Below the pieces are notes generated by a model, which searched no databases, was not told the origin of the DNA, and saw only the letters and a program-made list of their open reading frames with translations. Shown one piece after another: positions 53,273 through 59,684 of a DNA stretch of 64,000 nucleotides. The first letter of the stretch is position 1, and the number at the start of each line of letters is the position of its first letter. A program made the translations under genes and the position numbers. The stretch is from a virus (lineage: Duplodnaviria > Caudoviricetes), in the IMG/VR virus record IMGVR_UViG_3300042010_000129, positions 128,001 to 192,000 of that record. One strand, given 5' to 3'.

Positions 53273-53487
53273 GTTCTACGCCTTCTTGTCCAGCGGGAAA
53301 ATTTACAGGTAAGAAAACTGATCACGATCAAGACAATCAGGAACCCGGCAAACGTAATCACCGGGCTATCGAAAAATACAATCTTGAAGCGACCGTTATA
53401 CCAATCAATTACTGGCATAAGGCACGACACAAAGCTTAACGCAATGGAATCACCGTGCCTTGCCCAAATGGAACGCAGAAAGTTCAC
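53269..53487 (-). CDS. two-TM membrane protein
   Basis: Hydrophobic with a basic tail. Confidence 0.6.
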   Translation of the reverse strand: MNFLRSIWARHGDSIALSFVSCLMPVIDWYNGRFKIVFFDSPVITFAGFLIVLIVISFLTCKFSRWTRRRRT

Positions 53488-53759
53488 TTGAACATTTTCT
53501 CTGCCGGAACGTTGTAAGTTTCCTGCGCCATCACCGAATAGAACAGGCGGGCCAGATCGGTGTGCGCTACCGGCGTTTTGTTCATCATGCGGCTGCGAAT
53601 TGCGCTCGCCATTTCAGGACTGACAAAACCGTTTTCGTCGAACAGCCCCGGCGCAATCAACGGCTTGTCGTTGACCTTCACCGAATTCTGTTTCAGCTGG
53701 CCGTTCGGCATGAACAGCGCGGACAGGGTTTTAGCAGCTTGCATATTTTTGTCGTTCAT
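53484..53759 (-). CDS. hypothetical protein
   Basis: 91 aa. Confidence 0.6.
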   Translation of the reverse strand: MNDKNMQAAKTLSALFMPNGQLKQNSVKVNDKPLIAPGLFDENGFVSPEMASAIRSRMMNKTPVAHTDLARLFYSVMAQETYNVPAEKMFK

Positions 53760-53760
53760 T

Positions 53761-54333
53761 TTATTGCTCCCGTTGGGCGATGCGCTGTTGCACGTAGTTG
53801 ATAAGTTCGTTCGTGGTTTGCCACGTCATGTCTTCGTCGGGAATTTCGAGGCTGAAATGTTCCTCGACACACAACGTCAGGTCGAACATGGAAATCTCGT
53901 TGAATTCCATTTCGCTGAATGGCGTGCTGGCCTTGATGTGGTCTGCGCGATAACCAAAACTACCGGCCACCATTTCGAGAATCGTGGCTTTCAGTTCTGG
54001 TGCCATTTCACTCGGCATAATTTCCTCTACTTCGTCAAATGGCACGGTGTTCGGCAGCGGGTAATTCTTGGCCGCGTCGTCGAGTGCAGCGCGCAGCGAC
54101 GGCTTTGGTTCCGTCCGCTCAAAGCGCCACATCAAATTGAATTCTTTGGCCGGTGTGCGCTGAAACATATTCGGGTTGATCGACAGGCCGCTATTCGACA
54201 GGGCCGTGCGGCGTTCCAGATAATCGAGGCGATCAGTGTCCTCGAAAAGTTCGCGCAATTTTGCAGCGAGTTTGTAATCGGTGGCGCACACCAATTCGTA
54301 TGCGCGTTGGCGTTCCTGTTTGGTCAGGCTCAT
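53761..54333 (-). CDS. phage N-terminal domain fused to an acyl-carrier-protein-like domain lacking the attachment Ser
   Basis: LK..IL..VA..FG...I..ST.F..M..NEI.MF.L...VEEHF.LEIPDED...TT..LINYV aligns with ACP. The DSL motif reads NEI. Confidence 0.75.
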   Translation of the reverse strand: MSLTKQERQRAYELVCATDYKLAAKLRELFEDTDRLDYLERRTALSNSGLSINPNMFQRTPAKEFNLMWRFERTEPKPSLRAALDDAAKNYPLPNTVPFDEVEEIMPSEMAPELKATILEMVAGSFGYRADHIKASTPFSEMEFNEISMFDLTLCVEEHFSLEIPDEDMTWQTTNELINYVQQRIAQREQ

Positions 54334-54335
54334 GA

Positions 54336-54605
54336 TTAATTCACCAGCTTACGAATGAGAAACGACGTGCGAGCATAACCGATTACTTTTGAATTCTTCG
54401 GTAGCTCAATTAGCTTTCCGTAGGCCTTGCGGGTTTTATGCCCTTGGCCTTTCCCGTACCAGTACCCGGCCATCAAATGCAGACCGGGCTGGCGGGCGTT
54501 TGCACCACGCTTGATATCTTGCTGCGTGATGTTGATCGCTACCCAATGGCGGCGACCGCTACCGGTTGTTTTCGCCGGAATTTTCACTAACGACAGGTTC
54601 TTCAT
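54336..54605 (-). CDS. basic hypothetical protein
   Basis: Start moved to MKNLSL. Confidence 0.55.
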   Translation of the reverse strand: MKNLSLVKIPAKTTGSGRRHWVAINITQQDIKRGANARQPGLHLMAGYWYGKGQGHKTRKAYGKLIELPKNSKVIGYARTSFLIRKLVN

Positions 54606-56034: not shown

Positions 56035-56501
56035 TTGCGCCTCCGCTCTTCTTTTGTCTTCGTCACGATTTTCATCATGTCGGAGAATTCGAAATTTTCA
56101 TCGGTATCACAGCGGTAGATAATCAGCTTCCAGCCGCGTGAAATCTCTTCCAATTCTTTTCCTGTACCTGCCTTACGTTCATCCAACGCCTTCAGCGTGG
56201 AATCCAGTAATTCGCCGTACTTGAACGTGTTGGAAAAATGCCCGGTATTGATATCGAGCCAAACCGCTTTTTCATTCGGCTTGAGTTCTTCTTTTACCCA
56301 CGCTTCGATTGCCTTTACCACGCCTTCATAGCTCAGGTCGTAGTCGATGCCGGTGTGGCCCTTCGGCGGCACGGCACCCGGTGGATTCAGATGCGGATAC
56401 CAGTAGTCGATACTCGGATTCATAATGTTGAGGCCGGTTTCTTCGTACTCGTATGCGTAAATCGGCATACGTGCCATTACAGCATCCCAATCAATATTCA
56501 C
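56031..56501 (-). CDS. hypothetical protein
   Basis: 156 aa. Confidence 0.65.
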   Translation of the reverse strand: MNIDWDAVMARMPIYAYEYEETGLNIMNPSIDYWYPHLNPPGAVPPKGHTGIDYDLSYEGVVKAIEAWVKEELKPNEKAVWLDINTGHFSNTFKYGELLDSTLKALDERKAGTGKELEEISRGWKLIIYRCDTDENFEFSDMMKIVTKTKEERRRK

Positions 56502-56860
56502 TGTTGCACCTCAGAATTCCGTCGCACAAATCCAAAGCTCAACACGTAGCGCGTGCCGTGGACAACAGGCGTCACGCTGTGCAGATGCAGATCAGGCCGG
56601 AAGAAAGTGAAAAAACGATTACTGAAAATTGCACCAGCGTGTTCCGGTACACCACCATCCTTTGCGTTCCACAAATAAACGTTCAGCCGATAATGCTTGT
56701 GGTCTGGCACGGGATCGCGATGCTTTGGAATTCCAGATCCCACCGGATAACGCAGCAGGTACAAATCCCATTTGAAGCGACTGAAAAACTTCCAGCGATT
56801 TAGGAGTTTCAGTTTTTCATAACCGGTTCCCTGTCTGCCCGGTTCCCAATTAAATCGCAT
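56498..56860 (-). CDS. minimal 2OG-Fe(II) oxygenase (P4H/AlkB-like fold)
   Basis: LLRYP.G..IPKHRD (HxD)...FRPDL.LHSVTPV..GTRYVLSFG (H, R-x-x-x-S). Confidence 0.85.
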   Translation of the reverse strand: MRFNWEPGRQGTGYEKLKLLNRWKFFSRFKWDLYLLRYPVGSGIPKHRDPVPDHKHYRLNVYLWNAKDGGVPEHAGAIFSNRFFTFFRPDLHLHSVTPVVHGTRYVLSFGFVRRNSEVQQ

Positions 56861-57665: not shown

Positions 57666-59684
57666 TTAGAATTTTACGTTCAGGATGCGATTGATTGCGC
57701 CCTTCACACGGACTTGCATTTCAGCACGATCATTGACCGAGAAGCCGAGGCCGCTCAGTTGGTCAGCGCTGGCAGGCACTTTCATTTGCGCGGAAACCGC
57801 TTCGAAAGCTTTGCGATGTTTGCTCAGTTCATCGCGCAGGTATTCGTTGTAGAAACCACGGGTGCCCTCTTCGTTTACGCAGCCCTTGAGCATAAAGAAA
57901 ACATGCTCATGGCCCACGGCCTGATCGTTCCAGAAATTCGGGGAACGGCAGATCAAATCAACCGGTGTCCATTCTTCGGTTTTGATGCCCCAGTTTTCAA
58001 CCGAGGAACCAGCACCACCGACCATGCCTTGGCCTTCGACGCTGATATTGCCAGCTGCATCGACGACGATGTAACCAGCGGTAACGCGGCGATCATTGCC
58101 CAGTTCTTTTGGATGCGAGAAGCTGTAGATTTTGCCCAGCACTTCCACTTCCACTTCGAAGCCGACGTTATTGGTAGTTCGCTGCGACCAGTTGTGAACC
58201 TGAATTTCGTAGCGGCCTTTTTTGATATCGCCTTTGTCAGTCCAGAAAATGTTTTCCACTGGATCGACGCTGTTCGCGGCGTGACCGGCGTTCATGTCCA
58301 CATCGAGCGTGGCATTGAAAACTTTACGGGTACGGAAGTCGCAACGATCCCGGCCATTGTTTACGCTTAGGTCGAGGTCGTCGCCGTTCTGCCACGAAAG
58401 CGAAACGCGAATATCGCCGTCGATTTTACCGCCTGCTTTTTTCACACGTTCGCGAATCGACGACGAAGTAACTTCACCAATGTACGACCACGAAAATGGG
58501 TTGTCCCATTTCAGCAGCGGTTTCGCGTCCGGATTAACCGGGGCGATCAGGGAAACGAAACTGGCGGTGTGTTCGTGCTTCACCAGCACTTCGAGGGTGT
58601 CGGCTTTCGGCAAAACTTTCTTGATGAAATCTTTGATCGAAATGTCTTCAACGTCGTTCAGAACCGGAACGTTTTTCTTGGTCGGTTTGATGCCACCGAA
58701 CGCGCCGCCCAGCAGTTGCTTTTTCACCGTGCCGTCAACGAACAGAACGTCGTTAACCGAAATGTCTTCACGGGTTGCGTAACGACGCGCCAGCGAATCA
58801 CCGAGGCCCAGTTTATCGACCAGCTTTTCAGCTTCGTCGATCATTTTCTGAGTGACCAAAGCTTTCGAACGTTTGTAGTTCGGGCCAGCGGTTTTGAATT
58901 CGAAAGCCTTCACGGCGTTTTCGAGTTCCATGCCTTGGGTGATATCCGACAGCAGCGTGCCCACAACGTCGTTGAGGATGCGGGTGTGCGGCGTCGAATT
59001 CTTCCACAGGAAAATTTCACGACCGCGTTCGGTTTTCAGCTTGGCGTAATCCGCTTTCAGTTTACGCAGCGCTACAACTTTCTTGCGCTTTTCGTCGCCT
59101 TTGTACAGCGAGTCGGTGTCGATCAGATCCATCACGATATCAATCGCGAAATCCGCGATTTCATTGATCGAACGTTCCAGCAGATTTTTGTCTACGCTGG
59201 ATTCACCGATGTAGTCAGTTGGGTTTTTATCCCAACGGAAAATCGCAGGCACCAGACCGTGGAAGTGGTGCCACACTTCGCCCGTTTCTTGGCTGGTGGT
59301 TTTCGCGCAACCGTATTGCGGCATTTCCGCAATGAAACGGTTTTTGATTTTCAGCGAACGCACCTTTGCAGCCATTGCGTCGGCCACCGCTTGATGCGTT
59401 GGATCTTCGACCTGCACATCCCACACGGTCAGCAGTTTACCTTTCTCGGCGTACACGACAGCACCGAGGTTGCGCACGAAATTGTGGCAGGTATTGCATT
59501 CGTATTCGCGACGTTCACGGAACATCGGGTTGGTGCCTTCAGGGAACGACGCAAGGTAATGCGCCCACAATTCGTCACCGTTGATATCAACGAGGAAAAC
59601 GCTGTTCTTTTTCCCTTCGTCTTTTTGCAGCATCGAATTGTAGTTTGCGGTTACAGCCTGACCGAATTTCGAAAAATCACTCAT
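57666..59684 (-). CDS. conserved 672-aa phage protein with N-terminal CxxC and YfaP/DUF2135-like C-terminal domain
   Basis: YL.SFP.GTNP.FRERREY.C..C..F; KWDNPFSWSY.G; IRVSLSW.N.DDLDL; GFYNEYL..EL..HRK.FE. Confidence 0.8.
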   Translation of the reverse strand: MSDFSKFGQAVTANYNSMLQKDEGKKNSVFLVDINGDELWAHYLASFPEGTNPMFRERREYECNTCHNFVRNLGAVVYAEKGKLLTVWDVQVEDPTHQAVADAMAAKVRSLKIKNRFIAEMPQYGCAKTTSQETGEVWHHFHGLVPAIFRWDKNPTDYIGESSVDKNLLERSINEIADFAIDIVMDLIDTDSLYKGDEKRKKVVALRKLKADYAKLKTERGREIFLWKNSTPHTRILNDVVGTLLSDITQGMELENAVKAFEFKTAGPNYKRSKALVTQKMIDEAEKLVDKLGLGDSLARRYATREDISVNDVLFVDGTVKKQLLGGAFGGIKPTKKNVPVLNDVEDISIKDFIKKVLPKADTLEVLVKHEHTASFVSLIAPVNPDAKPLLKWDNPFSWSYIGEVTSSSIRERVKKAGGKIDGDIRVSLSWQNGDDLDLSVNNGRDRCDFRTRKVFNATLDVDMNAGHAANSVDPVENIFWTDKGDIKKGRYEIQVHNWSQRTTNNVGFEVEVEVLGKIYSFSHPKELGNDRRVTAGYIVVDAAGNISVEGQGMVGGAGSSVENWGIKTEEWTPVDLICRSPNFWNDQAVGHEHVFFMLKGCVNEEGTRGFYNEYLRDELSKHRKAFEAVSAQMKVPASADQLSGLGFSVNDRAEMQVRVKGAINRILNVKF

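Follow-up and report, generated by a model that had tools for sequence, protein, structure and literature searches.

A serine-less acyl carrier protein-like domain fused to a conserved phage domain in a Lu11/HRDY3-like jumbo phage

The phage protein P0001 carries at its C-terminus a domain with the fold of acyl carrier proteins (ACPs) in which the serine that would receive the 4'-phosphopantetheine group is replaced by glutamate. Its gene lies in a stretch of 64,000 nucleotides from a Caudoviricetes genome, which is referred to as the window in the following. This Ser-less ACP-like domain is real and far beyond chance, and because Glu occupies the phosphopantetheine position the domain is unable to carry acyl groups. 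By fold and Pfam assignment it belongs to the carrier-protein superfamily, of which it is a cofactor-free ACP-like variant. Regarding its function, we give about even chances to the reading that P0001 is a pseudo-ACP accessory protein, in which a cofactor-free acidic binding module is tethered to a conserved phage-specific N-terminal domain.

Phage ACP genes are routinely labelled as auxiliary metabolic genes, and JGI and UniRef list homologs of P0001 under the name 'acyl carrier protein'. Papers that mention ACPs of jumbo phages regard them as rare auxiliary genes whose role is unknown (PMC7760394, PMC13573597), and a search of the literature for the function of phage-encoded ACPs, for Ser-less phage ACPs or for the fused family yielded nothing specific. 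As P0001 lacks the defining Ser of a functional ACP, the annotation as an acyl carrier protein is unwarranted in this case.

Results and discussion

The ACP-like domain and its glutamate

The gene extends over positions 53761..54333 of the minus strand, including the stop codon. It starts with ATG and comprises 190 codons; the ORF list and the translation give a two-domain protein of 190 aa, which has 18 homologs on jumbo-phage contigs. The N-terminal domain (residues 1–95; 54049..54333, minus strand) is connected by an acidic flexible linker (residues 96–111; 54001..54048, minus strand), which is variable in length and sequence within the family and predicted with a pLDDT <50 for residues 96–109, to the ACP-fold or PP-binding-like domain (residues 112–190; 53764..54000, minus strand), which has a net charge of -10.

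A first-pass annotation made from the sequence alone had described the C-terminal ~80 aa as ACP-like, and our analysis bears this out. Residues 117–181 match the Pfam family PF00550 (PP-binding) with 30.9 bits and an E-value of 3.3e-7, the curated cut-off being 20.8, and the C-terminal part also matches PHROG 5934, 'acyl carrier protein', while the matches to the ACP models of NCBIfam stay under their cut-offs. The best solved sequence relative in phmmer searches is the Aquifex ACP 2ehs (E 5e-6). An AF2 model calculated from 19 family members reached a mean pLDDT of 73, with values of 72–87 in the ACP domain. When it was compared with solved ACPs using VIA-align, the four-helix carrier fold was recovered with a best Z of 14.2 and an rmsd of 1.0 Å over 76 residues (AntF), and with a Z of 12.4 and an rmsd of 2.1 Å for E. 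coli AcpP in its complex with LpxD. An earlier and shallower model had already matched ACPs in Foldseek with TM values of 0.83–0.88 and rmsd values of 1.0–1.4 Å.

The same annotation had read N-E-I in place of the invariant D-S-L of ACPs. This register is found in three independent alignments, namely the phmmer alignments of P0001 to 2ehs, 7e42, 1vku and 2cnr, the 19-member family alignment and an hmmalign alignment to a profile of canonical ACPs only, all of which place N145-E146-I147 opposite D-S-L. Between N145-E146-I147 and the EIPDED motif the alignment is gap-free, and single-residue gaps occur only outside both anchors. The AF2 model, superposed on AcpP and other ACPs, agrees with this register in that helix II begins exactly at E146. 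According to the alignments and the codon table, the phosphopantetheine Ser position corresponds to the GAG codon of Glu146 (53896..53898, minus strand). Contigs of four further runs, belonging to four studies, have the same codon; the two nearby differences in these contigs, at 53881 and 53884, are both synonymous and affect the third bases of the codons for D151 and F150. In a functional ACP, helix II opens with the Ser of a D-S-L motif; P0001 has N145-E146-I147 there, so that not only the Ser but also the Asp before the attachment site is gone (N145). The domain can thus not be phosphopantetheinylated at the canonical site, as had been proposed.

It might still be argued that P0001 is a carrier in which Ser148, another Ser or Thr, or even Glu146 holds the prosthetic group or the acyl cargo. 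Ser148, the Ser of the 'EISM' motif (codon TCC, 53890..53892, minus strand), lies only two residues past the canonical position and had been named in the first-pass annotation as the residue that could turn out to be the true site. However, this residue is Ala in P0004 and P0005, which are 89–93% identical to P0001, and Asp in all other homologs, which means that Ser148 is not a conserved attachment site. Transferases of the AcpS and Sfp type modify a Ser that is preceded by Asp at the N-terminus of helix II, and that Asp has been lost as well. In addition, a phage-encoded phosphopantetheinyl transferase (PF01648) is absent from the four relatives searched, i.e. HRDY3, Lu11 and two complete IMG/VR relatives. 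We regard a carrier function of P0001 as highly improbable.

Distribution of the serine in the family

The 18 homologs of P0001 share its two-domain architecture, can be aligned end to end and are located on jumbo-phage contigs of up to 250–320 kb. The DUF8224 gene and further neighbors are shared as well, which places P0001 in a fusion family of Lu11/HRDY3-like phages. P0001 is thus a member of the HRDY3 XDJ15383-like fused 'acyl carrier proteins', with which it has in common the architecture and the locus downstream of the DUF8224 gene and from which it differs in that HRDY3 and 13 other members keep the D-S-L motif. In the 19-member family the attachment column contains Ser in 14 cases, Glu in four (P0001, its two close relatives and P0011) and Asn in one (P0013), with the codons AGC for Ser, AAT for Asn and GAA or GAG for Glu. 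The Ser-bearing members (D-S-[LV]) include all distant ones (HRDY3 XDJ15383, P0014, P0016, P0017 and P0038-41). Since all distant members and outgroups carry D-S-L, Ser is the ancestral state. Conservation of the Ser loss among homologs, which the first-pass annotation had proposed to examine, is therefore a matter of subgroups: the close relatives, P0011 and P0013 share the loss, and 14 of the 19 members do not.

Two further Ser-less domains are found in Lu11. The syntenic gp353 (140 aa; L047:7038-7457, minus strand) matches PF00550 with 26.4 bits and reads G-V-D-D-L-D, which puts Asp at the Ser column; the RLDYLE N-terminal domain is undetectable in this protein. A protein of 241 aa (L049:1003-1728, minus strand, corresponding to ~275.0-275.6 kb of NC_017972) begins with an ACP-like domain in which the motif is A-D-E-T-D, the Ser column being occupied by Glu, and continues for ~160 aa after it. 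Its Pfam score of 15.9 bits is under the cut-off, and its match to the canonical-ACP profile has an E-value of 2.5e-11.

In the full-length tree, one and two losses of Ser in the 190-aa group are both compatible with the data, a single change being allowed in 42% of the bootstrap trees. The tree of the ACP domain only, a short domain with long Lu11 branches, requires 3–4 changes of state, and no bootstrap replicate is compatible with a single one. Among other phage ACP-like loci sampled from IMG/VR, the Ser is kept in 37 of 37. Loss of the Ser is thus a recurrent peculiarity of the Lu11/HRDY3-like group, the replacements being mostly acidic.

HRDY3 possesses the fused gene and, immediately downstream of it, the canonical stand-alone ACP XDJ15384 (GGDSLD; L001:4581-4853), and no further ACP. 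In the two complete IMG/VR relatives the fused gene is the sole ACP, and phmmer detected no second ACP within the 64-kb window. Like the transferase, ketosynthases (PF00109) and AMP-binding or adenylating enzymes (PF00501, above cut-off) are absent from HRDY3, Lu11 and the two complete IMG/VR relatives, so that the Ser forms would depend on host enzymes if they act as carriers. In the 14 Ser homologs the domain could be a working carrier that is modified by a host transferase, and the original job of the family may accordingly depend on the cofactor.

Selection and cassette exchange

The N-terminal domain shows dN/dS values of 0.04–0.07 among the closest relatives and of ~0.1–0.2 at larger distances. 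For the Ser-less ACP domain, values of 0.15 were obtained between the loci L003 and L004 and of 0.29–0.33 among the window, L006 and L007, and the ORFs of all Ser-less copies are intact, without stop or frameshift. Judged from these substitution rates, the Ser-less ACP domains are under purifying selection and clearly not neutral, although they are less constrained than the N-terminal domain.

These values bear on the possibility that the domain is merely decaying, i.e. that a true carrier became dispensable in some lineages, possibly with the carrier role being filled by a different ACP-domain protein of the genome, and that the Ser-less remnant is slowly eroding while only the N-terminal domain matters. 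The far stronger conservation of the N-terminal domain (~0.05 versus ~0.3 for the ACP domain in the closest relatives) is in line with such a decay and counts against a selected binding module. The same is true for the further erosion of the motif in the window copy from A-D-E-I-A to F-N-E-I-S (F144, N145 and S148), which also fits a relaxed constraint. However, the dN/dS of the Ser-less domains is 0.15–0.33 instead of ~1 and their reading frames are undamaged, their fold is still confidently predicted although the Ser-less alleles are old, and Lu11 has retained a Ser-less ACP-like domain even where the RLDYLE domain cannot be detected. Decay is, in our opinion, a rather unlikely explanation, if somewhat less so for the window copy with its eroded motif.

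The age of the alleles follows from a comparison of the two domains. Based on protein distances, the ACP domain has diverged ~3 times more than the N-terminal domain in pairs that are discordant for Ser, and equally in Ser-Ser pairs. In a sliding window comparison of the DNA of L002 (Ser) and L004 (Glu), the flanks and the N-terminal domain are 85–96% identical, the identity drops to 56–67% over nt 282–495, which comprise the linker and ACP segment, and it recovers by ~nt 540; this drop explains the excess divergence of the ACP domain in the Ser-discordant pairs. Synonymous sites in the linker and ACP segment are saturated between Ser and Ser-less alleles, indicating that these alleles are old. 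The linker and ACP segment is thus exchanged like a cassette between phages which are otherwise ~90% identical and have the same gene order; old divergent alleles, of which one type has the Ser and at least two types lack it, recombine into near-identical genomes. As Ser and Glu alleles occur in the same genomic background, selection on the Ser-less alleles would seem to operate without need of the prosthetic group.

Comparison of positions 53700-54400 of the window with the loci L002, L003 and L004 revealed a recombination mosaic throughout the neighborhood. L003 contains a divergent segment directly upstream of the ACP gene, and a further divergent block lies ~1.3–1.5 kb from the start of the ACP gene.

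Possible functions of the Ser-less domain

The pseudo-ACP domain, as we envisage it, would keep the four-helix fold and the acidic surface without the phosphopantetheine arm, and would bring the N-terminal domain and a partner, of either phage or host origin, together. Most likely it acts via partner binding, the cofactor being dispensable for what selection preserves, and the Ser-less domain of Lu11 without a detectable N-terminal domain points to a separate role for the ACP-like domain itself. Compared with the bacterial type II ACPs (AcpP, PF00550), P0001 has retained the four-helix fold (Z 12–14, rmsd 1.0–2.1 Å), the VEEHF motif of helix II, the EIPDED loop and the net acidic charge. Unlike them, it has Glu for Ser, has lost the flanking Asp residues and cannot be a holo-carrier, and its domain is fused behind a phage domain of 95 residues and shares only ~20–22% identity with AcpP.

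The use of the ACP fold as a docking subunit instead of a shuttle, as proposed here for P0001, is familiar from the ACPs of complex I, the mitoribosome, EmbA-EmbB-AcpM and MmpL5-AcpM, which are among our fold matches. These complex-subunit ACPs occur in the holo or acylated state and in many cases bind with the help of the arm, whereas arm-mediated binding is impossible for P0001. A closer precedent is the mitochondrial ACP of Plasmodium, which is without the Ppant group and yet binds and stabilises Isd11-Nfs1 (Falekun et al. 2021, PMC8547962). Both proteins are divergent ACPs without Ppant, the binding role being known for the Plasmodium falciparum protein and proposed for P0001. They differ in that the former is a eukaryotic organellar protein with Isd11-Nfs1 as its partner and the latter a phage protein with a fused domain.

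A partner in the host was at the center of the first-pass annotation, which had suggested that the domain could be an ACP decoy blocking the synthesis of lipids, lipid A or AHL signals, or acting on SpoT or MukB; our analysis lends no support to these functions. In the decoy reading the Ser-less acidic domain would dock on host enzymes that bind AcpP and act as a dead-end competitor, with the Glu perhaps mimicking the phosphate of phosphopantetheinyl-serine; PlsB, the Fab enzymes, LpxA/D and AHL synthases are candidate targets. [quoted passage not shown] The resemblance to AcpP of E. coli and P. putida (~20–22% identity) is however no closer than to the ACPs of Aquifex and Thermotoga, and the equivalents of D35, S36 and D38 of AcpP are N, E and S in P0001. 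Of the residues by which AcpP docks to its clients, D35, D38, E41, E47 and E48 correspond to N145, S148, D151, E157 and E158, three of five being acidic in this comparison of sequences. D35, S36 and D38 are required for binding to IscS (PMC13343975), and SpoT does not bind apo-ACP (PMC3896788), which further speaks against a decoy at these two targets.

The kind of residue that replaced the Ser can be read in two ways. An acidic residue stands at the Ser column in about four lineages (Glu, Glu, Asp and Glu), though it is at least two nucleotide steps from AGC, which would favor a decoy, and both the cassette exchange and the fast divergence of the segment would be in keeping with an arms race. 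Asp, Asn and Glu are, on the other hand, common residues at the N-termini of helices, where they act according to helix-capping preferences, so that a structural reason suffices for the replacements. Moreover, the surfaces of host ACP clients are conserved and the same should hold for a decoy, yet the ACP segment is the most variable part of the gene, and most homologs have retained the Ser. Taking both sides into account we consider a decoy of host ACP unlikely. A more specific form of it holds that the acidic replacements were selected as phosphomimetic 'pseudo-holo' ACP modules, which would resemble holo-ACP while permanently lacking the arm, obstruct a host ACP-client enzyme or a pathway that senses ACP during takeover, and be swapped as cassettes between phages in an arms race; this form we judge to be improbable.

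The case of P0001 means that some phage 'ACPs', at least, do not act as carriers; protein binding is their probable role. In a single lineage of jumbo phages the carrier Ser appears to be dispensable: it disappeared several times, mostly in favor of acidic residues, and the fold nevertheless stayed under selection. The natural Ser and Glu alleles in phage backgrounds that are ~90% identical constitute a simple test system for the role of a cofactor-free ACP fold in infection, and could also be used to ask whether the ACP fold touches host lipid metabolism.

Genomic setting

The gene of P0001 is part of a long run of small and closely spaced genes on the minus strand. Its source is a Lu11/HRDY3-like jumbo phage, i.e. 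a giant, soil- and plant-associated phage of the Pseudomonas type. The gene order at the locus is common to HRDY3 and Lu11, and 13 studies have metagenomes, sampled from food, plants, the rhizosphere or soil, in which DNA of the region is present. Five of the runs are possibly the source of the sequence itself, and among the runs listed no RNA data set contains it. A megablast search of the region against the phage collection gave no match, and a scan of the region for promoters and terminators returned counts at the level of shuffled sequences.

The DUF8224 protein of 672 aa is encoded 3.3 kb upstream (57666-59684, minus strand) and is 60% identical to its counterpart in Pseudomonas phage HRDY3 (313 kb) and 57% to that in Pseudomonas putida phage Lu11 (280 kb). 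It is a widespread phage protein, with tblastn matches in 555 phage records whose hosts include Salmonella, Klebsiella, Bacillus and Caulobacter, and is a handy marker for the placement of phages. In Pfam and PHROG scans of ten neighboring ORFs, the only match that suggested a function was to a 2OG-Fe(II) oxygenase (PF13640, 21.8 bits, below the Pfam cut-off of 27), obtained for a protein of 120 aa (56498-56860, minus strand) which also has a strong match to PHROG 13746. The latter protein is 87% identical to that of Lu11 and 80% to that of HRDY3, a degree of conservation that is unusual for the region.

The two genes which flank that of P0001 are possible clues to its context. Upstream, and separated by 2 nt, lies a gene for a basic protein of 89 aa (54336-54605, minus strand), a possible functional neighbor with the sequence pattern RRHWVA...GYWYGKGQGHKTRKAYGK and without a family match in Pfam or PHROG. 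This protein is 100% identical in the window, L006 and L007, whose ACP genes differ by 7–11%, and in HRDY3 and Lu11, where the locus is rearranged, homologs of its gene still adjoin the ACP-fusion gene or lie close to it; the gene in the same slot of L003 shows an identity of only 27%. Downstream, starting 1 nt past the stop codon, a gene for a protein of 91 aa (53484..53759, minus strand) is kept behind Ser forms and Ser-less forms alike; in HRDY3 and Lu11 its homologs lie on the other side of the fusion gene, upstream. In the clade of the window this unrelated conserved gene takes the slot that is occupied by the stand-alone ACP in HRDY3. The idea that the slot might hide a cryptic ACP was rejected, the hhalign probability being 0.2%. 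A complex prediction for P0001 with the 91-aa and 89-aa neighbors gave a score of 0.00 without a verdict and counts neither way.

The N-terminal domain

The fusion to an RLDYLE-type phage N-terminal domain noted in the first-pass annotation is present, and this domain (RLDYLE...SGLSINP...MWRF...LRAAxD; dN/dS 0.04–0.2) is the most conserved part of P0001. The AF2 model predicts helices at residues 5–18, 20–45 and 80–90 and a small beta-hairpin formed by strands 51–54 and 65–69, with a pLDDT of ~60–85. The N-domain family has no significant match in Pfam or PHROG, and ten N-domains compared with Pfam gave no match at E <= 5–10, PF13935 (Ead/Ea22-like) included. In a feature search all matches stayed at values <0.9, the sole lead to PF13935 (0.76) pointing to a cluster in which 29% of the members carry PF13935. 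The result lists of fold searches with P0001 (pdb_via_wide, afdb_clusters, viral and atlas) were filled by matches to ACPs.

A profile search revealed one distant relative of the N-terminal domain outside the family (E 1.8e-6), the 132-aa protein P0113 (L051:5001-5399), whose C-terminal half matches it with the pattern RLDWIQ...GWRFMR...IREAIDHA. A tblastn search with P0113 against the phage collection gave no match. The protein is encoded on a phage contig of 41 kb and its neighbors are genes of a replication module (DNA polymerase A, Thy1 and Lar).
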